A program made the translations under genes and the position numbers. Shown here in pieces: positions 1,689-55,778 of a stretch of DNA of 64,000 bases. Location: IMG/VR virus record IMGVR_UViG_3300010354_000061, positions 1 through 64,000 of that record. One strand, given 5' to 3'. The notes beneath the pieces are model-generated. The model had not been told where the DNA came from. It made no database searches and was given only the letters and a program-made list of their open reading frames with translations. This stretch comes from a virus. Positions within the stretch are counted from its first letter, which is position 1. Each line of letters starts with the position of its first letter.

Positions 1689-2465
1689 TTAATTTCTCCA
1701 AAATTCAGAATTGATCACACGACTTAAAATTTCAGAGGGTACGAACGTTTCTTGTTTTTTCAATTCTACCTTACCCTCAATGTTATGTAATCCTTGAATT
1801 TGAACATCATCATCATACTCTTTAAAACTAAATTTAACATTATTAAAATCATGCTTGAAATGGGGCTCATTAATAAAATCATATATCTTCGTCAATATTT
1901 TTTTCGGATTGCTTGCTAGGTCCTTATATTCCACTAATAAATATTTGCTTTCATTAGCTGGCACCAAGGCCTGCTTTAATCCGTTATATGCATATCCAAG
2001 TATTCCATCATGTCGCATCAATGCTTCACAACGCGTAAAAACATTTTTATTATCATCCCTAGACAACTTGCTATTTTCAAAACAATTTCTTTGATAAAGC
2101 TGCTCAAAAGAATTTAATATTTCTGTTAAATCTCGTACACATATAATTACTTTACTTTCAGGAAATAAATTTTGTATCATAGGCAAATCATAGGTCCATC
2201 CTCTACTTGTATCAAAAACAATTTGTCTATCAGTAATATCTTCATAAAACGTATCAAACACATTTTGAATTATTTTTTTTCGTGTTTGTACAGAACAAAG
2301 ATATTTCATTCCAGGCTCAGCAGTCGCTTCCGTTACAATCGATCTGGCCATTCTATTCAAAGGTCCAGCAATTGATGCATAAATTTTTGGATTTTGTAAT
2401 AATAACGAAGATAGTAAAGTTGTGCCCGACCTAGGCAATCCTGAAATAAAATGATACTTTTTCAT
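1689..2465 (-). CDS. PAPS-dependent sulfotransferase family protein
   Basis: 5'-PSB loop FISGLPRSGTTLL; KVIICVRD..EILNSF (3'-PB); VEYKDL..NP. Confidence 0.85.
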   Translation of the reverse strand: MKKYHFISGLPRSGTTLLSSLLLQNPKIYASIAGPLNRMARSIVTEATAEPGMKYLCSVQTRKKIIQNVFDTFYEDITDRQIVFDTSRGWTYDLPMIQNLFPESKVIICVRDLTEILNSFEQLYQRNCFENSKLSRDDNKNVFTRCEALMRHDGILGYAYNGLKQALVPANESKYLLVEYKDLASNPKKILTKIYDFINEPHFKHDFNNVKFSFKEYDDDVQIQGLHNIEGKVELKKQETFVPSEILSRVINSEFWRN

Positions 2466-10795: not shown

Positions 10796-12271
10796 TTATT
10801 TTTCCAGCTTGCGCTCGAGAGTTTCAACTTTGTCACTAAGCTCTTTTATTGCTTCAATCAATAATGGAACTAGTCGTCCATAATCAAGGGTCATGTATTG
10901 TGGATCAATTGGTGCTGGCTGGACAATTTCTGGCAGCACGTTCTCCACGTCTTGAGCTGAAACACCAACCTCTGTTTTCGTGGTGTTATAACCAAGCTTC
11001 CCAGCTGTCTCGTTTCCTGTATAGTAAAAACCACTCAGCTGCTTCAATTTGGCAAGCGGGTCAACAATTGGTCCGACAAATTTTTTCAATCTCATATCGG
11101 AGTAATAAGCTGTAATATTACCTGTTGCTCTAATTTCACCAGATGTACCTGAAGCATCTGTAGCAACACCCAACGAATTAACTCTATAATTGTTTGTTGT
11201 AGTTAAAGCACCAGCTGTGCTTGCAAATGTTGCATTATCAACATAGGTTGCACCGATTGCGCTAACAATTTGAGCACCTGTTGCAGCAGTAAATGCTCCA
11301 GTACCATTACCACGAACAATGCCTGTTATTGATGTAGTTCCTGTACCACCACGAGCAACCTCGACGGTGGTAAACCCAGATCCCAAACTTCCGCTTGTCA
11401 GCGTTCCAACAGTAACAACGCTCGATGTTCCAGTGTAAGCGTTCAGCGCCGAAGTAATAGACGATGTCGTTGCATAGTCCGCAGCCAATGTACCACCAAG
11501 TCGTAAAGCGTTGTTTGCTGTGCCTGAAAAACTTGTGGAATTAACCACGGCTGATCCAATTGTAAGATTGGAAGCCGAGATTATAACATTAGAGGAAGAA
11601 TTGGAAATACGCAGAATTGTCGAATTGGCAAACGTATTTACGGTCGTATTACCAATATTAACATTGCCTCTGTAAACAAGAACATTGTTTGCATGCAGTG
11701 TGTTCCATATTGACGTAGTATTTCCAATGGAATAGGTGTTGTCATTTGGTACTAAATCACCCACAGCAATTTGATCCCCAATAAAAGTAGGAGGACCAGC
11801 AGTGAATGTTACGTTGCCATTGAACGTAACATTACTTGTAAATGTTCCAATGCCAGTAAATGTCATGTTACTTGAAACGTTTAACATGGCTCCACCCACA
11901 GCAACATTACCAGCAAGGTTAGCCGCCCCTGTTACAGTAAGACCCGATGCTGCAAGCGTTCCATCAATTGTTGTATTACTAGCAATGTTTAGTGTAGAAC
12001 CCCCTACAACAACATTACCAGAGAGATTAGCTGTTCCTCCTCCCAATACTAATGAGGAAGCAATCAACGTTCCAGTTATGGTTGTATTGCTGGAAACATT
12101 TAATGTGGCTCCACTAACAACAACATTACCAGCAAGGTTAGCTGTTCCTAGTACACTAACGTTTGCTGATGCAATGAGAACACCATCAACCGTTGTGTTG
12201 TTTATTGTAGAGTTAGATGCGTTGTTTGGTACTAGAATTCCACCTTCCGCTACGAATCTTGAGCCAGCCAT
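10796..12271 (-). CDS. tail fibre with C-terminal intramolecular chaperone (peptidase S74-like)
   Basis: beta-repeat shaft, then ITAYYSDMRLKK...GVSAQDVE.VLPE...DYGRLVPLLIEAIKEL coiled coil. Confidence 0.85.
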   Translation of the reverse strand: MAGSRFVAEGGILVPNNASNSTINNTTVDGVLIASANVSVLGTANLAGNVVVSGATLNVSSNTTITGTLIASSLVLGGGTANLSGNVVVGGSTLNIASNTTIDGTLAASGLTVTGAANLAGNVAVGGAMLNVSSNMTFTGIGTFTSNVTFNGNVTFTAGPPTFIGDQIAVGDLVPNDNTYSIGNTTSIWNTLHANNVLVYRGNVNIGNTTVNTFANSTILRISNSSSNVIISASNLTIGSAVVNSTSFSGTANNALRLGGTLAADYATTSSITSALNAYTGTSSVVTVGTLTSGSLGSGFTTVEVARGGTGTTSITGIVRGNGTGAFTAATGAQIVSAIGATYVDNATFASTAGALTTTNNYRVNSLGVATDASGTSGEIRATGNITAYYSDMRLKKFVGPIVDPLAKLKQLSGFYYTGNETAGKLGYNTTKTEVGVSAQDVENVLPEIVQPAPIDPQYMTLDYGRLVPLLIEAIKELSDKVETLERKLEK

Positions 12272-43813: not shown

Positions 43814-44416
43814 TTATTTGTTATTTATGAAGCGGTCAATAGTGAGTTGGCGACACTTTTCATTGTTAAATCGCACGAATGGCTTATATTTATCAATTTT
43901 ACTTCTCACCTCTGGCCAAACAACACGATCATCAATATTTTTGCTCCAGTATTTAATGAATGGTGTAATACTGTCAAGTATAATAACTGTTTCAATACAC
44001 ACATCTTTTTGAAGATATAGTCTCAACAAAGTCGGATGTTGGCCGTCAATAACTTCGAAATTCTTGTTGTAGTTATCATCAAGCTTTGTAAGCTCATTTT
44101 GGTATTGGTAAGAGAGAGATTCTTGACGCTTGAGCCACTTCGCATACGTATTGTGTACCTTCATGTTTTCCATGAGATCACCAATCCACTGAGAAGGACC
44201 CAAGTCTACAAAGCTTGCAACAAGATATTGCTCTAGATTTTTTTGCTTGGAAAGCTTATAGAAAAAATACTTGTCTTTCCTGGTTTCAAAAGTAGCTGGC
44301 GTTACCTTTACGTGACCCTGATACTTAAAATAGTCGTATTTTGGGTTTGTAAAATGACTCTTTAACGCCAGATACTTTTTATATGCTTCAAAAGCTTCAG
44401 CCATTTCAGGCGACAT
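43814..44416 (-). CDS. gp59: helicase loader gp59
   Basis: FEAYKKYLALKSHFT..KYDYFKY.G; F..RKDKYFFYKLSK; GQHP.LL; KYKPF (start may be 44404). Confidence 0.9.
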   Translation of the reverse strand: MSPEMAEAFEAYKKYLALKSHFTNPKYDYFKYQGHVKVTPATFETRKDKYFFYKLSKQKNLEQYLVASFVDLGPSQWIGDLMENMKVHNTYAKWLKRQESLSYQYQNELTKLDDNYNKNFEVIDGQHPTLLRLYLQKDVCIETVIILDSITPFIKYWSKNIDDRVVWPEVRSKIDKYKPFVRFNNEKCRQLTIDRFINNK

Positions 44417-45038
44417 TGAGGTTACGGAAGATTAACCCTTGTTGACGAATATAACGCTGAGCCATCGTGGAAGCCTTACGCATTTCATTTGTTTCGTTAA
44501 TTAACAGTTCAAACCCACTTGCTTCCATAGCACCAATCCAATATTCAGGAGGCATGCAGTTTACGTGGTGATGGCCACCTTGACCTGGAAATGCGTGTGT
44601 CATTGTGACAATCTTACACGTCTTAAATGTCTCAAAGAAGTTTTGCATGTACTTCTTTTCCACATGCTCAACAAACTCAACACACCACGCTAAATCGCGA
44701 ACAGGATTACACTTGAACGGTCCCACAGTATAGTCATGAATAATCGTCACTTTGTTTACTGTATCTTCACGAGGACACAAATGATCACCATCAACTCCAA
44801 TCACGTCGATGCCACGCTGGATGAATTGCTTAACAACACCTCCAGGGCCACACCCAATATCAATAACAGACTTGATATTAAATGTTTTAATTAGGTAATC
44901 AATTGCTCCATCGTCAGTGTGAGTTTCAAAACCATGTCCTCCTAAATGGTCAGCAAGACCTGGTGTGGAATGGTCGGACGGTGGAACAAAATTGTATTCA
45001 ACTGGGGCCTTCTCGGGGCCAGCGGCACGTTCTGTCAT
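44406..45038 (-). CDS. class I SAM-dependent methyltransferase
   Basis: SVIDIGCGPG motif I; GVDG; DLAWCVEFVEH; PGQGG.HHVNC..PEYW. Confidence 0.8.
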   Translation of the reverse strand: MTERAAGPEKAPVEYNFVPPSDHSTPGLADHLGGHGFETHTDDGAIDYLIKTFNIKSVIDIGCGPGGVVKQFIQRGIDVIGVDGDHLCPREDTVNKVTIIHDYTVGPFKCNPVRDLAWCVEFVEHVEKKYMQNFFETFKTCKIVTMTHAFPGQGGHHHVNCMPPEYWIGAMEASGFELLINETNEMRKASTMAQRYIRQQGLIFRNLNVA

Positions 45039-45630: not shown

Positions 45631-46156
45631 AAAATATGTGCCTTCCTATTTTTCCAATTCGCTTTTTCTTCCAACCAGGGTTAACATAGTCAGCATGGTA
45701 GTATAATGCATCCTGTAAAAGTTCTAAACGGAAGTCCTCCAAAAGAACTTTCTTTGCTGCTATGTATGATTCCTCGTACGATTTTGTATTCGTAGGAGCT
45801 AAACTTGAAGGATGAAGACAGTGCCAGGAAAATTGGCAGACAGTCTTCGACATTAGCGTATCTTTCTGATAGACAACCTTGCAGATATCTTTAGGAAAGT
45901 GTGGGGAGTTCGACCTATTGATTGTAACTTGAGCTACAGCTACTTTACCCTCAAAAGATTCCACACCAGCCTCATGATAAACGTTTAGAGCTAAACACTT
46001 AAGTTGTCTTTCCCTCTCTGCTGCTGTTATAAACTCCTTACCTTGATACTTATTGGTGAAACGTGATATAGCAGAATTTGTGGCAACAAATCCAACAAAT
46101 AGTCCAATTGCCACACACGCGATCGTAGCGATCGCGCTGACGGTTCTTTGAGACAT
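45623..46156 (-). CDS. cell wall hydrolase, SleB/Hydrolase_2 family, N-terminal TM
   Basis: CLALNVYHEA..E..EGKVAVAQVTINR; FP..IC.VVYQ; CQFSW; ALYYHADYVNP.W; IGRHIFY. Confidence 0.9.
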   Translation of the reverse strand: MSQRTVSAIATIACVAIGLFVGFVATNSAISRFTNKYQGKEFITAAERERQLKCLALNVYHEAGVESFEGKVAVAQVTINRSNSPHFPKDICKVVYQKDTLMSKTVCQFSWHCLHPSSLAPTNTKSYEESYIAAKKVLLEDFRLELLQDALYYHADYVNPGWKKKRIGKIGRHIFYE

Positions 46157-46179
46157 TTTTGTTCCTCTGTTGTTAAAAA

Positions 46180-46476
46180 GAAAGAGGTGTTTCTGTTTCC
46201 AGGTACACCTCCGAAACCCAGATAGCCGATATTAGGCGGCCATCAGATAAGTGTCTTCATTGGCACTTATGATTTTGCGCTTTTACGGTAGTCGCCTTCC
46301 GGGTTGCCATATAGCCATACTCCCTGCCCGTCGAAACCAATTCAGGCCCATCAGAAGCATACTATTCTTGATTTAATCAAGTGCCTTCGTTAGGGTCTGC
46401 AATAGTGTGCTTTTGGTGGACCTGCCCGGAATTGAACCGGGGTCCGAACAGCTTTCTTTCTACACAGTTTACAACC
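46180..46476 (-). ncRNA. ssrA: circularly permuted (two-piece) tmRNA, tag ANEDTYLMAA
   Basis: acceptor piece ..GGACCCCGGTTCAATTCCGGGCAGGTCCACCA (ends 46414) precedes coding piece GGGCCTGAATTGGTTTCGAC (starts 46349); acceptor stem with G3-U; tag ORF 46264-46232. Confidence 0.92.
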
Positions 46477-46627
46477 ATTCACCTACAGTGAGGCCCTTTT
46501 CCGTGGCCCACTTGTTAGCCTCTTCCATATGTTCAAAGACAGGGCTTGCTAAAGTGTCTTCCTCATTAACCCAAAACCATATGTCAGCGTGGCTCATACC
46601 ATCGTTGTACTTTATAAGTTTCAACAT
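46469..46627 (-). CDS. small hypothetical protein (52 aa)
   Basis: MLKLIKYNDG...GLTVGEWL*, fills gap; stop overlaps tmRNA 5' end. Confidence 0.5.
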   Translation of the reverse strand: MLKLIKYNDGMSHADIWFWVNEEDTLASPVFEHMEEANKWATEKGLTVGEWL

Positions 46628-49867: not shown

Positions 49868-49894
49868 AAAAAAAGGCCCCGAAGGGCCTTTTTT
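49868..49894. terminator. bidirectional intrinsic terminator
   Basis: A-tract-GGCCC-CGAA-GGGCC-T-tract. Confidence 0.85.
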
Positions 49895-49895
49895 G

Positions 49896-50096
49896 TTACT
49901 TCTTGGGTTCTTCTTTCTTTGGCTCTTTCTTAGGTTCCTCTTTTTTAGCAGGTTCCTTTTTTGGGGCATCTTTGGGAGCAGGAGCTTCTTTCTTTGGTTC
50001 AGCCTTTGGGGGCTCTACTTTCTTTGGTTCCTGGCCAAAAACTGGAGCGGTAAGACCCAAAGCTACAATACCAGCAACTAGCATATTCGACTTCAT
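49896..50096 (-). CDS. secreted low-complexity K/E/P peptide
   Basis: signal peptide MKSNMLVAGIVALGLTAPVFG then PKK-E repeats; AAGGAGA SD. Confidence 0.75.
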   Translation of the reverse strand: MKSNMLVAGIVALGLTAPVFGQEPKKVEPPKAEPKKEAPAPKDAPKKEPAKKEEPKKEPKKEEPKK

Positions 50097-50107
50097 ATTT
50101 TTCTCCT

Positions 50108-51094
50108 TTAACAGTTAGCTACAACTTCACTACCTTTGTCGTAAAATTGGAAATCATATATTTTACACTCAGTACCTTCTGTCACAGCACTCATAACGTC
50201 ACTACGCTTATCTTTCTTAACGTAAAAGATAAAAAACCCGCCACCACCGGCACCCAACAACTTACCACCCAAAGCACCGGCCTCGATAGCCTTGTTGTAA
50301 ACATTATCGAAGTAGTCGTTACTGATAGACTCCACGATTGTTTTCTTAGTTTGCCATCCCTCGTGAAACAAATGACCAATGTCATCAAACTGACCGTTCA
50401 AAATACTGTTGTAAGCTTGATATGCCTTATCTCTGTTGGCTCTTACTTTATCGAACTTACTCTTATCAATAAGTGAGTCGCGCTGCTTCTGAAGAATGCT
50501 GTTTGCTGATCTTCCTCGACCGCTATACACAAGAAGGAGATTTTGATTGAATTCAAACATCCGTTGGTCGTTGATATTAACAGCAGTGTTGGTTACTGAT
50601 CCGTCAGTATGAAACTCAAATAAATTCATACCACCAAAGGCAGCTGCATACTGATCCTGCTTGCCTATTGGATACCCACATCGATCTATTTCAATCTCAC
50701 AGGCAACATCAGCTAGATATTGTTTCGTAATGTGACCCCACCGAAGAGTTGCGAGAGCGTTTACAAGACCTACAGTAAACGTTGATGAAGAACCAAGACC
50801 TGACCCTTTAGAAAGAATGTCTGATATAGAGGCAACAGTAATTTCTTTCTTGTAGTTAAAGTATGTGAACGCTTCTTTAGAAATTTCATGCTGCATTGTT
50901 TCAACATCGGGTGTTTCCTCAATCTTGTCATACATTGCTTTGATGCCAAGATGGGGAGTTCGGTGAACACAAACATAAACAAACTTATCAATTGTAACAG
51001 ACAACGCTGCTCCCTTCTCTTTCTCATAGAAAGAGCTCATATCGCTGCCTCCACTAAAGAGGCTCATACGGAGAGGAGTTTTAGTGACTATCAT
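50108..51094 (-). CDS. hddA: D-glycero-alpha-D-manno-heptose 7-phosphate kinase (GHMP, HddA-like)
   Basis: KTPLRMS..SGGSD; GSGLGSSS; IGKQDQYAAAFGG; GALGGKLLGAGGGGF. Confidence 0.85.
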   Translation of the reverse strand: MIVTKTPLRMSLFSGGSDMSSFYEKEKGAALSVTIDKFVYVCVHRTPHLGIKAMYDKIEETPDVETMQHEISKEAFTYFNYKKEITVASISDILSKGSGLGSSSTFTVGLVNALATLRWGHITKQYLADVACEIEIDRCGYPIGKQDQYAAAFGGMNLFEFHTDGSVTNTAVNINDQRMFEFNQNLLLVYSGRGRSANSILQKQRDSLIDKSKFDKVRANRDKAYQAYNSILNGQFDDIGHLFHEGWQTKKTIVESISNDYFDNVYNKAIEAGALGGKLLGAGGGGFFIFYVKKDKRSDVMSAVTEGTECKIYDFQFYDKGSEVVANC

Positions 51095-51828
51095 AGTTTA
51101 ATGTTGAAACCCGACTTAACAGCATCATCATAGAACATCTTTACCGTTTCGTAGGAAAACTGAGTAAGATCTTTACCAAACGTGTTAAGTTTCTTGATTA
51201 GTTGGGGGGTCATTGTAATGATATCGCAGCCGCACAGTTCAGCTTGGATAAAGTTGAATGGTTCACGAGGGGAAGCCCACAATGTTTGAATGTTACCATT
51301 CACGAAGCTGACATGACCAAGAACAGCAACGGCGTGTCTTACAATACCAACAGGATCGACACCGGCATCGGCAATCCGTCCAGCAAAAATAGAAATGATT
51401 CCTTTTACGTTCGGATCAAGAGCTGCCGCAACGTTCTCAATTTGTTCTTTTGTAAAGACAGCTGTGACGTTACAATTTACACCAAGACGAGAAAGATCTT
51501 GAACCAAATCGTAAGTAGCAACTCGTTGTGTGTTCATTACAGGAATCTTAACATATACACGATACTTCTTCATTGCGCCCCACGACTGAATTTTTATTGC
51601 TTGCTGATGCATAACATCTAAGTCATCATCAAACACTTCAAGGCTTAAGCATGTTTCAGGTCGTGTGCTGGCTAGGTAGTCAATGCACTCATTAGCAAAC
51701 ACTTCATAATCAGTTACGCCAGCTTGGCGCATTAGAGTTGGATTAGTGGTGAAGCCAACGATTCGCGGATCATTTGCCGCTTGCTTGATCCCTTCCATGT
51801 CTGCACCATCTGCAAATAATTTAATCAT
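51091..51828 (-). CDS. transaldolase (short form)
   Basis: LFADGAD; GFTTNPTLM; SLEV; VYVKIP; CNVTAVF; SIFAGRIADAG; LWAS.RE. Confidence 0.85.
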   Translation of the reverse strand: MIKLFADGADMEGIKQAANDPRIVGFTTNPTLMRQAGVTDYEVFANECIDYLASTRPETCLSLEVFDDDLDVMHQQAIKIQSWGAMKKYRVYVKIPVMNTQRVATYDLVQDLSRLGVNCNVTAVFTKEQIENVAAALDPNVKGIISIFAGRIADAGVDPVGIVRHAVAVLGHVSFVNGNIQTLWASPREPFNFIQAELCGCDIITMTPQLIKKLNTFGKDLTQFSYETVKMFYDDAVKSGFNIKL

Positions 51829-52363
51829 AACTACACTCCTTTTGATTTATTATATAGCATGCCTCAAGTACATTGGCAACAACAAAATTAGGTTTTATTG
51901 ATTCAAACTCTTCTGGAGGTGTATATGGACCGTTGCTTACATAGAATGTTGTTAGCCCACTCCTATGACCGCACACTATATCTCGCCAGCTATCTCCAAT
52001 TAGAAAGCTCTCATTACGATTGATGTTATATTGCCTACACAGCTTGTCAACCATCCCCGTGTTTGGTTTATAGCAATCCGCTCCACGTTCCTTGCAATAC
52101 GTAATAGAATCAACACCCAACCGCTCATCGAGAATCTCATGCATTGTATCTAACGCTCGTTGAGTCATTAGATTATCATTAATGTCAGGCTGGTTTGTTA
52201 TGACGTGAGCTTGGAAACCCATTGCCTTGCAAAGCTTCACGGCTGCTCTTGCCTCTGAAATAATTTCAAACTCTTCAACAAGCCAAGCAGCCGTATAACG
52301 ATCGCCGTGCTTGACCATCTTTGCAAGCACACCATCACGATCAAAAAATATAGCTTTTACCAC
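51821..52363 (-). CDS. gmhB: heptose 1,7-bisphosphate phosphatase (HAD, GmhB-like)
   Basis: AIFFDRDGVL; ITNQPD; C..KP.TGM; SFLIGDSWRD. Confidence 0.85.
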   Translation of the reverse strand: MVKAIFFDRDGVLAKMVKHGDRYTAAWLVEEFEIISEARAAVKLCKAMGFQAHVITNQPDINDNLMTQRALDTMHEILDERLGVDSITYCKERGADCYKPNTGMVDKLCRQYNINRNESFLIGDSWRDIVCGHRSGLTTFYVSNGPYTPPEEFESIKPNFVVANVLEACYIINQKECSYD

Positions 52364-52941
52364 GTCGTCTTTTTAACTTGCAGCTTGGGATGGGAAACGA
52401 TACAGTGCCAAACAACTGCTTGGAATGCTTCGCTGTGAGGAGTAACTCGTTCTGGGAATAATTCAGGCACTACTACAACATTGTCGCCGTTCAGTGCAGT
52501 GTAACCAGATCCTTTTCCAACAACCCCACAGACAGTAGCATGGCACTGCTTTGCATATTTAATTGCGTTGATAAGGTTCATAGAGATCTTGCGCTCTTCA
52601 GAACCTCCACCTACAGAAAAGATAAGCAGGCAATCGCTGGCAGTGAGATTACTTGTACGAAGATATGCTTCGAAGATAGTTTCAAAGCCATCATCGTTTG
52701 TACGTGCTGTAAGTTCAGAAACGTTGTCCGTAGGAGCATATGCCTCTATACCACAGAGCTTACGAAAGTCATTAACAGCATGGGAGGCATTACCAGCTGA
52801 TCCTCCAACACCCAGAACGAACAGTCGTCCCTTTCGCGTGCGGACAAGGGCCAACGCATCGACAATACTTTCTATTTTTTCTTTGGAGATTGTTTTTGCA
52901 ATTTGTTCAACTTCAGTAAAAAATTGTTCGCTAAAGCTCAT
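52357..52941 (-). CDS. gmhA: phosphoheptose isomerase (SIS, GmhA-like)
   Basis: LGVGGSAGNASHAVNDF; ELTARTNDDG; FSVGGGS; TPHSEAFQAVVWH. Confidence 0.85.
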   Translation of the reverse strand: MSFSEQFFTEVEQIAKTISKEKIESIVDALALVRTRKGRLFVLGVGGSAGNASHAVNDFRKLCGIEAYAPTDNVSELTARTNDDGFETIFEAYLRTSNLTASDCLLIFSVGGGSEERKISMNLINAIKYAKQCHATVCGVVGKGSGYTALNGDNVVVVPELFPERVTPHSEAFQAVVWHCIVSHPKLQVKKTTW

Positions 52942-53015
52942 AATGACCTCACCATTTCATAAAGGAATGAGGGAGTCTATCTCACGACAGTCTCCCTCTG
53001 ACATGCGTGTGCGTG

Positions 53016-53023
53016 TATTTATA
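53016..53023 (-). promoter_or_regulatory. T4-type late promoter TATAAATA upstream of heptose operon
   Basis: exact TATAAATA in intergenic gap about 75 nt before gmhA ATG. Confidence 0.65.
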
Positions 53024-53072
53024 AAGCTGTCGCACCCCAGCTTACGTTGGAGCTTATTGCTCCAACTCATTC

Positions 53073-53840
53073 TTACTTAGTAAGACCAGCATCCCTACGA
53101 GCAAGATATACGTACGTGTAAGCATACGACTTACTAATTTTAAGGTCTTGCATCACAAGGGCGACGATATCGCTAGTCTTCTTATCCTTGTTGGCTTCAA
53201 AGATTGCATTAACACGCGAACGATTAGTCACACTCTTTTCCTTAGGAGCCTTAACACCAGTAATATTAACAACGTTAGTTTGATTCTGAACAGCAGCTTC
53301 CATTTTGACACCTCCATTAATAAAGTTTACTCGAAGATCGCGGTACACTTCCTTCCACAGCGCACCGTGCCCGCGATCGTCATCATCACCGTGCGCATAT
53401 TTTATACTAGAAAAAACTTTCGTAATTAACGACCACTGAACGCAGTGAGCCAATTCGTGAGCAACAAGAGCCCAAATACACTGCTCTCTTGGAGCACCGG
53501 CCGGTAAGTTACCAATTTCTCGATCATCTGCAAATTCACTATATTCACGAAAACAATCACTATTGTTCTCCAAAAAATAAATTCCTGCAAGCGACATCCA
53601 GGGTTTATATTCCCTGTCCTTCTTATAATACTTTACACCCCCATACGAACGGCGACGACGCTCGCTAAACGACATCGAAATATTGGGTGTCCAAGTATTG
53701 TCACCAATTTTCTGACGAATTGCTGGAACCATAGCATTACAAGCAGCCTGCACAGTCGACCGAACGATTTGTTTTTCGTTCTGAAGCCTGTTGAACGTCC
53801 TTGGCTTATATGCCTTCAACCACTTGTCAAGTAAATTCAT
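53073..53840 (-). CDS. SprT-like zinc metalloprotease with C-terminal HTH-like segment
   Basis: HELAH then HG..WK; C-terminal DIVALVMQDLKISKSYAYTY. Confidence 0.55.
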   Translation of the reverse strand: MNLLDKWLKAYKPRTFNRLQNEKQIVRSTVQAACNAMVPAIRQKIGDNTWTPNISMSFSERRRRSYGGVKYYKKDREYKPWMSLAGIYFLENNSDCFREYSEFADDREIGNLPAGAPREQCIWALVAHELAHCVQWSLITKVFSSIKYAHGDDDDRGHGALWKEVYRDLRVNFINGGVKMEAAVQNQTNVVNITGVKAPKEKSVTNRSRVNAIFEANKDKKTSDIVALVMQDLKISKSYAYTYVYLARRDAGLTK

Positions 53841-53883
53841 GATTCCTATTGTATATAAAGTCTCAAATTATGTCAACACATCC

Positions 53884-53967
53884 TGGTACCCGAGGCGGGA
53901 CTCGAACCCACAAGGCCAAAGCCGGCAGATTTTAAGTCTGCTGTGTATACCATTCCACCACTCGGGC
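53884..53967 (-). tRNA. tRNA-Leu (UAA)
   Basis: GCCCGAG..GGAATGGTATACAC-AGCAGA-CTTAAAA-TCTGC, long variable arm, GGTTCGAGTCC, CTCGGGT-ACCA. Confidence 0.95.
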
Positions 53968-55547: not shown

Positions 55548-55684
55548 TCTGCTCTCCTTAATAGGTGCCGGTTACGCACTTCCGGCGAACTCTAGGAATG
55601 CTACGCGCATTCACACCGACAGAGGTTTTGGTCACATACAGGGTTCGCTTCCGGAACTCCCCCAGTATGCCAAATCATGTTGTT

Positions 55685-55778
55685 CCGCGTTGACTAACCG
55701 CTTAGCCGGCCACTTAGTAGCAACCCAAAGCGCGGCGGTTAGTTTCGACCCCTTCCCGGGTCATCGTCAGAACGCTGG
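55685..55778 (-). ncRNA. type I hammerhead ribozyme
   Basis: GCGTT-CTGACGA-T-GACCC/GGGTC-GAAA-CTAACCGC...GCGGTTAG-TC-AACGC; GUC cleavage after 55692. Confidence 0.88.

Follow-up and report, generated by a model that had tools for sequence, protein, structure and literature searches.

Genes for a candidate split system that would make and transfer a nucleotide-activated heptose in a T4-like environmental phage

The window analysed here comprises bases 1-64000 of a linear IMG/VR virus contig of 78,847 bp (IMGVR_UViG_3300010354_000061; 47% complete by CheckV), and the subject of this report is an operon of sugar-phosphate genes within it, gmhA-gmhB-transaldolase-hddA. The operon probably represents the precursor-supply half of a split phage system that makes and transfers a nucleotide-activated heptose. 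Orthologues of the nucleotidyltransferase (NT) and glycosyltransferase (GT) of related phages lie 17-19 kb from it, beyond the window end, where they were found by tblastn of the relatives' proteins against the whole contig. All enzyme functions given below are deduced from homology, and positions beyond the window end continue the window numbering.

There are four open reading frames (ORFs) in the supply operon, all on the minus strand (52941-52357, 52363-51821, 51828-51091 and 51094-50108), with successive overlaps of 7, 8 and 4 nt. The first (52357..52941) encodes a GmhA-like sugar-phosphate isomerase with a SIS domain. Its top NCBIfam matches, at 45 bits against cut-offs of 209-320, are phosphoheptose isomerases, as are all 10 of its 10 PDB sequence matches (GmhA), and it would convert sedoheptulose-7-phosphate to heptose-7-phosphate. 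The second (51821..52363) encodes a HAD-IIIA phosphatase with GmhB as top match (84.7 bits) and the nucleophile motif DRDG (DxDG); it is predicted to remove the distal phosphate of a sugar bisphosphate. The product of the third (51091..51828) is a TIGR02134-type transaldolase (261 bits; the cut-off is 282), which differs from the talC type of cyanophages, has the Lys of VKIP, and would either supply sedoheptulose-7-phosphate or build octulose-8-phosphate. Only two of 50,697 phage records match this transaldolase at an E value of 1e-10 (tblastn), both of them Staphylococcus phages, and megablast of the whole operon against the same number of records gave no match. The fourth (50108..51094) encodes an HddA-like GHMP anomeric sugar kinase. 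The HddA equivalog is its top match (162.7 bits against a cut-off of 600), phrog_34407 matches over the full length at 1e-68, and the GHMP motifs GSGLGSS and GAGGGG are present. Because the scores are far below the equivalog cut-offs, the four enzymes appear to be divergent relatives of the named families, with their catalytic motifs intact.

The preliminary description had placed these overlapping genes between an exact late promoter and a terminator and had read them as enzymes for the first steps towards a nucleotide-activated heptose. The ORFs, their domains, the promoter motif TATAAATA and the terminator were all found, and the family matches and catalytic motifs support the assignment. 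The intrinsic terminator (49869..49894, minus strand), with an 11-bp stem and a U-tract, does end the operon, but a fifth gene between hddA and the terminator had been overlooked. This 66-aa ORF (49896..50096, minus strand), the last before the terminator, encodes a signal peptide followed by Lys/Pro/Glu repeats that resemble a TonB spacer; the product looks secreted and has no Ser, Thr or Asn. It is about 70% identical in two related loci, L003 and L004.

The off-window half is also on the minus strand. The NT (PF01467; contig 71580-72041) has the HxGH motif of the HldC/TagD fold and is 55-60% identical to the NT of operons of the L007/L009/L032 type (described below); its best match is rfaE domain II (TIGR02199; 75.4 bits against a cut-off of 181.5). 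A GalE-like SDR epimerase (70642-71583) lies between NT and GT. It scores 261.9 bits with the GalE model (cut-off 262.3) and 109.7 bits with the heptose model, ADP-heptose 6-epimerase (cut-off 274.6). The GT4 glycosyltransferase (69650-70639) lies beside rnh and is 55-57% identical to the GT of the unsplit operons. The preliminary description had pointed to the rest of the genome for glycosyltransferases and an HddC-like nucleotidyltransferase. A GT and an NT are indeed there, but the NT is an HxGH enzyme of PF01467 and is not HddC-like. HddC-type PF00483 was not found in this contig, in phages Cr30 and phiM12, or in two near-complete relatives, G001 (163.5 kb, 93% complete) and G002 (156.6 kb, 91% complete). 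Since PF00483 is absent from all of these, HddC is not simply beyond the window end; the clade does without it.

Relatives were collected first with the GHMP kinase as query and then with the GT4 glycosyltransferase, which gave 3589 GT homologues in metagenomes and 37 IMG/VR loci. Source labels on the GT homologues such as 'LPS glucosyltransferase' are automatic annotation. A tblastn survey of the 37 loci together with Cr30, phiM12 and DLP6 revealed a constant frame, WYL2-(variable sugar module)-GT-(optional kinase)-rnh-DUF6433; in the three named phages the GT is at the corresponding site, though some flanks are missing. The full module, NT-gmhA-gmhB-tal-GT-hddA, is one packed operon in L007, L009 and L032, and some add a TylF-like O-methyltransferase or a redoxin. 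A second variant, NT-GalE-GT with a more distant kinase (about 40% identity), includes G001 and G002, and gmhA, gmhB and tal are nowhere in the G001 genome. Other variants are gmhB-GT and, as in phiM12, the GT alone. The phage studied here and its close relatives L003, L004 and L015 have NT-GalE-GT at the conserved site and the gmhA-gmhB-tal-hddA block elsewhere. The hddA of the split block is 58-66% identical to the full-module kinases in comparison with 38-44% to the other kinases, and tal is present, among the relatives surveyed, only where gmhA and gmhB are present. Because the GT stays at one fixed place while the surrounding supply genes vary, it appears to be the constant core of the system, with interchangeable supply genes. 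On the same comparison, the block in the window is best read as the relocated supply half of a split system.

In the pathway we propose, the transaldolase would raise sedoheptulose-7-phosphate, from which the GmhA-like isomerase would yield D-glycero-D-manno-heptose-7-phosphate. The HddA-like GHMP kinase would phosphorylate C1, probably as the alpha anomer, and the GmhB-like phosphatase would strip the 7-phosphate. The HxGH NT would then form a nucleoside diphosphate (NDP)-heptose, which the GalE-like epimerase may re-shape, and the retaining GT4 would transfer the heptose to an acceptor with its configuration retained. In the sub-lineage to which this phage belongs, the gmhA-gmhB-tal-hddA block would have moved away from the GT and acquired a late promoter.

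The properties of the GT are consistent with this scheme. It carries the Pfam domains PF00534 (Glycos_transf_1) and PF13692 and an invariant EX7E motif (E213, E221). Its AlphaFold model (pLDDT 91.5) has as closest folds in Foldseek the retaining GT4 enzymes TarM, BshA, SenB, HepE, PimA, SdgB and GtfA, which makes it a retaining GT4 of the GT-B fold; among PDB sequences the GT had no match. We had also considered Foldseek as a guide to the acceptor and dropped it. It returned only generic GT4 folds, which do not distinguish acceptors, those of the matches being as diverse as teichoic acid (TarM), malate (BshA), selenophosphate (SenB), lipid (PimA) and Ser-rich proteins (SdgB, GtfA). The donor of a retaining GT is alpha-linked, and a donor of that kind is what would be expected downstream of a GHMP anomeric kinase. 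Because the two fit, the enzyme set appears chemically coherent as an NDP-alpha-heptose system.

Several points weigh against the heptose scheme. The scores of all six enzymes fall well short of the curated equivalog cut-offs, which leaves their substrates to inference, and the pairing of a GHMP kinase with an HxGH NT is outside both characterised heptose routes. The NT reads KHSFSSTE where heptose nucleotidyltransferases carry (F/L)xxGxSTT, the motif given as canonical for them in commentary on Tang et al. (PMC11461863). The GalE-like epimerase means that the real donor of the GT could be a UDP-hexose. Additionally, there is a eukaryotic-type phosphomannomutase on the contig (74455-75204, minus strand; 11455-12204 of locus L010, which is contig 63001-78847), absent from G001, and this suggests that mannose could also feed the GT. 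Finally, the supply genes are 17 kb from the GT here, the coupling between them rests on relatives, and the contig is less than half complete.

The supply operon has the exact T4-type late promoter motif TATAAATA at 53016..53023 (minus strand); 74 nt separate it from the first ATG. The octamer occurs five times in the window against 3.3 expected, which is not above chance, but its placement is not random. Four of the five copies are in non-coding DNA, which makes up roughly 5% of the window; the probability of this by chance is about 1e-4 to 1e-5 (arithmetic from the coding fraction). The fifth is within a 68-aa ORF, shortly before a fibre gene. Each copy points at a gene downstream of it, and in at least three cases that gene encodes a fibre or baseplate protein. 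The operon thus has TATAAATA upstream in the way that structural genes of the same phage do, as in a T4-type late transcription unit. The 74-nt leader (52942..53015, minus strand) contains a stable hairpin, GAGGGAG...CTCCCTC (-24.2 kcal/mol, z -2.4), with one compensatory change in comparison with L003, and an Rfam scan of the leader gave no family. The call of a late promoter seems sound because the placement of the motif is non-random and because motif, spacing and leader hairpin are all kept in L003.

Early transcription of the same genes is possible as well. The upstream neighbour of the operon is a 255-aa ORF (53073..53840, minus strand), 84% identical in L003, which encodes a putative SprT-like zinc peptidase with the motif HELAH (HExxH), read by eye. 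We had considered this ORF as a hidden sugar enzyme, but dropped the idea in view of the peptidase motif and the absence of any match in Pfam, NCBIfam and PHROG scans. Upstream of it there is a sigma-70-like promoter, TTGACA-17-TACAAT (53848..53876, minus strand; 11 of 12 matches), with hexamers identical to those of the promoter at 49863-49835. This is a possible source of early read-through into the supply operon; only a hairpin that lacks a U-tract stands between the SprT-like ORF and the operon. That hairpin (53046..53066, minus strand), between the ORF and the late promoter, is conserved with two compensatory stem changes in comparison with L003; it could serve as a weak terminator or as a structure at an RNA end, and might halt some early transcripts. 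A tRNA-Leu gene (anticodon TAA; 53884-53967, minus strand) is located just upstream of the early-type promoter.

The late promoter is apparently a trait of this sub-lineage. None was found in front of the operon in the relatives in which it is unsplit; in L009 TATAAATA is present, but a terminator follows directly. There is no TATAAATA at the Cr30 sugar genes, nor at the GT cluster, either here or in G001. The preliminary description had argued that late timing favours decoration of virion proteins over modification of DNA, and this argument is weak. The GT cluster is among early and replication genes and has no TATAAATA, the unsplit operons have no late promoter, and early read-through is possible. 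The step from late timing to 'not DNA' fails in addition because phage DNA sugar modification is itself described in one account (PMC13326640) as a late event.

We therefore weighed the candidate acceptors separately. The N-terminal domain of GT-B enzymes binds the acceptor. In the GT, even in comparison with Cr30 and DLP6, this domain is 43% identical, against 49-55% for the donor-side domain, and the conservation of the acceptor side spans phages of Caulobacter, Stenotrophomonas and unidentified hosts. Because the N-domain is nearly as conserved as the donor-side domain, the data hint at an acceptor common to the clade, across phages of differing host classes. In our estimate a virion protein and a host envelope glycoconjugate such as the lipopolysaccharide (LPS) core each have something under a one-in-three claim, DNA has a slight one, and the remainder falls to something else.

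The first of these readings, on which we would put no great weight, is virion glycosylation: the GT4 would decorate proteins of the fibres, baseplate or head with heptose made by the phage, in late assembly. The late promoter of the supply operon is conserved in L003, the GT is soluble with no export genes seen, and its GT4 relatives SdgB and GtfA glycosylate Ser-rich proteins. An acceptor-side domain conserved across phages of different hosts fits an acceptor that the phage itself encodes. There is also a precedent in mycobacteriophages, where a 2023 study by Freeman et al. in Cell Host Microbe reportedly measured the glycans of glycosylated virions. However, the GT is in a block of replication and nucleotide-metabolism genes in every relative, and the promoter data given above (the GT cluster here and in G001, the unsplit operons, and L009 with its terminator) do not place it among late genes. 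The preliminary description had also proposed two tailoring enzymes, a sulfotransferase (1689..2465) and a methyltransferase (44406..45038). The identity of the sulfotransferase is confirmed (PF13469/PF00685) and it sits inside a late fibre operon, as virion decoration would have it. The methyltransferase, by contrast, is below the Pfam cut-offs; it recurs in L003, L004 and L016 and is marginal in G001. A tailoring role is not supported for either, and both are lineage-specific: G001 keeps the GT and yet has no sulfotransferase homologue and a barely recognisable methyltransferase (25% identity). Co-occurrence with the GT was sought in the relatives for the sulfotransferase, the phosphomannomutase and an FkbM-family methyltransferase, and no homologue was found. 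The last of these is encoded at contig 77588-78265 (minus strand; L010:14588-15265), between nrdA and nrdB, and is absent from G001.

The sulfotransferase gene (minus strand) is located between genes for two Gly_rich_2 fibre-like proteins and downstream of that for a 2368-aa collagen-like fibre. It has homologues in the Synechococcus phages S-SKS1, S-SRM01 and S-SCSM1, and its product may sulfate a fibre or a fibre glycan.

The second reading, for which we likewise hold out only a modest chance, is that the GT4 adds the sugar to lipid A-core or another glycolipid on the cytoplasmic face, and that the host exports the product. Phage export genes would not be needed if the host flips it. Heptose is typical of LPS cores, capsules and S-layer glycans, the GT4 family includes peripheral-membrane lipid transferases such as PimA, and similar clusters in T4-like cyanophages are among genes of capsule and LPS type. 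The early or middle position of the GT suits exclusion functions; the purpose could conceivably be receptor masking against superinfection, or keeping progeny off debris. In contrast, the LPS cores of Caulobacter, Sinorhizobium and Stenotrophomonas differ widely and yet the acceptor-side domain is conserved.

A third alternative concerns the sugar and not the acceptor, and we consider it improbable. The transaldolase would move a C3 unit to ribose-5-phosphate, and the resulting octulose-8-phosphate would be isomerised, phosphorylated, dephosphorylated and activated. We know of one characterised pathway that combines a dedicated transaldolase with an isomerase, a GHMP kinase, a HAD phosphatase and a nucleotidyltransferase, namely LmbR/N/P/K/O. 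The lincosamide lmb cluster leads to GDP-octose by way of transaldolase R, isomerase N, kinase P, phosphatase K and nucleotidyltransferase O (PMC12945683). The same gene set is matched here, and the formation of octulose-8-phosphate is a prediction from that set. The tal gene is embedded with overlapping codons and, as noted, always accompanies gmhA and gmhB. The octose stays under consideration because the two characterised, textbook heptose routes have no dedicated transaldolase. Nevertheless, a transaldolase that tops up sedoheptulose-7-phosphate during infection explains the same data, and genes of the type found downstream in the Lmb pathway are absent; heptose is our preferred sugar.

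The weakest reading is DNA hypermodification, with the sugar on a hydroxylated base as in the glucosyl-hydroxymethylcytosine of T4 or the arabinosyl-5-hydroxycytosine of RB69 and DLP3, and we give it a very slim chance, although T4-like phages are the classic example of it, because nothing that could provide a hydroxylated base is to be seen. The ThyA family (PF00303) was not found in this contig (47% complete), G001, G002 or DLP6. The ThyA of Cr30 and of phiM12 has the canonical Asp169/Asn177 signature, and the phage studied here uses ThyX. No TGT was found when the deazaguanine route was sought, and neither AGT nor BGT of T4 appears in the list of fold matches of the GT. In its favour, the GT is among replication genes, and the arabinose route of RB69, DLP3 and HY126 shares the logic of a SIS isomerase, a kinase, a GmhB-like HAD phosphatase, a nucleotidyltransferase and GT4-like transferases. 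Cr30 gp129 also has a TET/JBP domain, but Tet_JBP was found in Cr30 only. This gene (NC_025422 59353-60681; L062:4354-5682, minus strand) is annotated as an SNF2 repair protein and carries the Tet_JBP dioxygenase domain at 77 bits. For Cr30 itself the odds of a DNA acceptor are higher than the slim chance given above; with TET/JBP, GT and heptose genes together, a base-J-like DNA modification is a candidate there.

The remaining content of the contig is that of a T4-like phage. The left 35 kb of the window encode T4-type baseplate and fibre proteins, and its right part contains genes for replication and small genes of early type (gp59, DUF932, a cell-wall hydrolase, a permuted tmRNA and the tRNA-Leu). 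An Rfam scan of the entire window at gathering score reported no hammerhead ribozyme at 55560-55778 (minus strand). ThyX, PhoH and RNase H are also encoded on the contig, outside the window. The phage-encoded, permuted two-piece tmRNA (46141-46541, minus strand) scores 141 bits with Rfam tmRNA_permuted and 124 bits with beta_tmRNA, and ARAGORN reads from it the tag ANEDTYLMAA. This is a hint that the host, perhaps a betaproteobacterium, has a permuted tmRNA. Directly upstream of rnh there is an 89-aa ORF (contig 69365-69634, minus strand; L010:6365-6634) with no family match; its position and size presumably agree with those of dsbA on the T4 map.

Three features of the system are apparently not yet described: the hybrid enzyme set, a clade-wide fixed GT with swappable supply modules, and a split layout with a late promoter. 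To our knowledge, nobody has demonstrated the use of a heptose sugar by a phage. The pathway variant, with a GHMP kinase, an HxGH nucleotidyltransferase and its own transaldolase, fits neither textbook route, and what is conserved across thousands of environmental T4-like phages is the glycosyltransferase and not the sugar pathway. The fullest form of the idea is that a soluble GT4, at a locus that is fixed across a very abundant clade of T4-like Proteobacteria phages, attaches phage-made alpha-heptose (or octose), produced by the hybrid route, to an acceptor that belongs to the phage itself, for instance a virion protein. We offer this as speculation that is more apt to fail than to hold. If it were true, phages of Gram-negative bacteria would have, as far as is known, their first virion glycosylation system, and there would be a third, hitherto uncharacterised route to nucleotide-heptose. 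The identity of the acceptor would tell whether aquatic myoviruses commonly coat their virions in sugar, mask receptors or carry a new kind of DNA modification.

Among the closest known systems is the pathway to GDP-D-glycero-alpha-D-manno-heptose, which serves S-layer and capsule glycans. Both use a SIS isomerase, a GHMP anomeric kinase and a HAD-IIIA phosphatase, and the alpha donor suits a retaining GT4. That pathway uses the guanylyltransferase HddC (PF00483), whereas the phage has an HxGH enzyme instead and a transaldolase of its own. The ADP-heptose pathway (GmhA/HldE/GmhB/HldD) shares with the phage enzymes of the GmhA and GmhB kind, a nucleotidyltransferase of the HldC fold and an SDR epimerase. 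It differs in its PfkB kinase, HldD and inverting GT9, in place of which the phage has a GHMP kinase, an epimerase that scores as GalE and a retaining GT4.

The octose pathway of lincosamide synthesis is part of an actinomycete antibiotic cluster, and its later Lmb tailoring genes are those absent here; the likeness is drawn from the description of the gene set. The Lmb nucleotidyltransferase is, we assume, of a different fold from the phage HxGH NT.

The mycobacteriophage system also has soluble phage glycosyltransferases, for which decoration of the virion that encodes them is proposed or shown. Its hosts are of Gram-positive type, its GTs are of other families and it has no sugar-supply genes; the system described here is known from genes alone. 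RB69, DLP3 and HY126 (AfhE/AfhF) make UDP-arabinose and modify their DNA with arabinosyl-5-hydroxycytosine (PMC13326640). These are likewise T4-like phages in which isomerase, kinase, phosphatase and nucleotidyltransferase feed GT4-like transferases. The route differs in having an arabinose-5-phosphate isomerase and a fused kinase-NT, and in requiring a ThyA-homologue 5hodCMP synthase, whereas no gene of the ThyA family was found in this contig or in G001 and G002.

Other phages also have annotated heptose genes, among them the cyanophage SynMITS9220M01; the homologous kinase of Bellamy is annotated just as 'kinase'. Virus-encoded NDP-heptose enzymes are active in vitro according to two commentaries (PMC11461863, PMC11573728), and by the commentary the phosphatase was missing from viruses. 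The phage described here, unlike the viruses of those commentaries, encodes a GmhB-like phosphatase.

A cultured relative with such genes is the Caulobacter phage Cr30 (NC_025422), which is T4-like and of the same clade. Transaldolase and GmhB-like queries gave no match in its 12.5-kb locus, and the tblastn search of all phage records with the transaldolase missed Cr30. We found no functional study of gp006-gp010, which are known from annotation as phosphoheptose isomerase, D,D-heptose 7-phosphate kinase, glycosyltransferase and nucleotide-sugar epimerase. An HxGH nucleotidyltransferase is nearby, across the record ends, and the sugar genes of Cr30 are not split. At this same locus the GT is 50.6% identical to that of the phage studied here, the kinase 37-40%, and the isomerase and the GalE-like epimerase about 30%. 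Cr30 is cultured and genetically tractable, and it would serve as a direct test bed for the proposed system.

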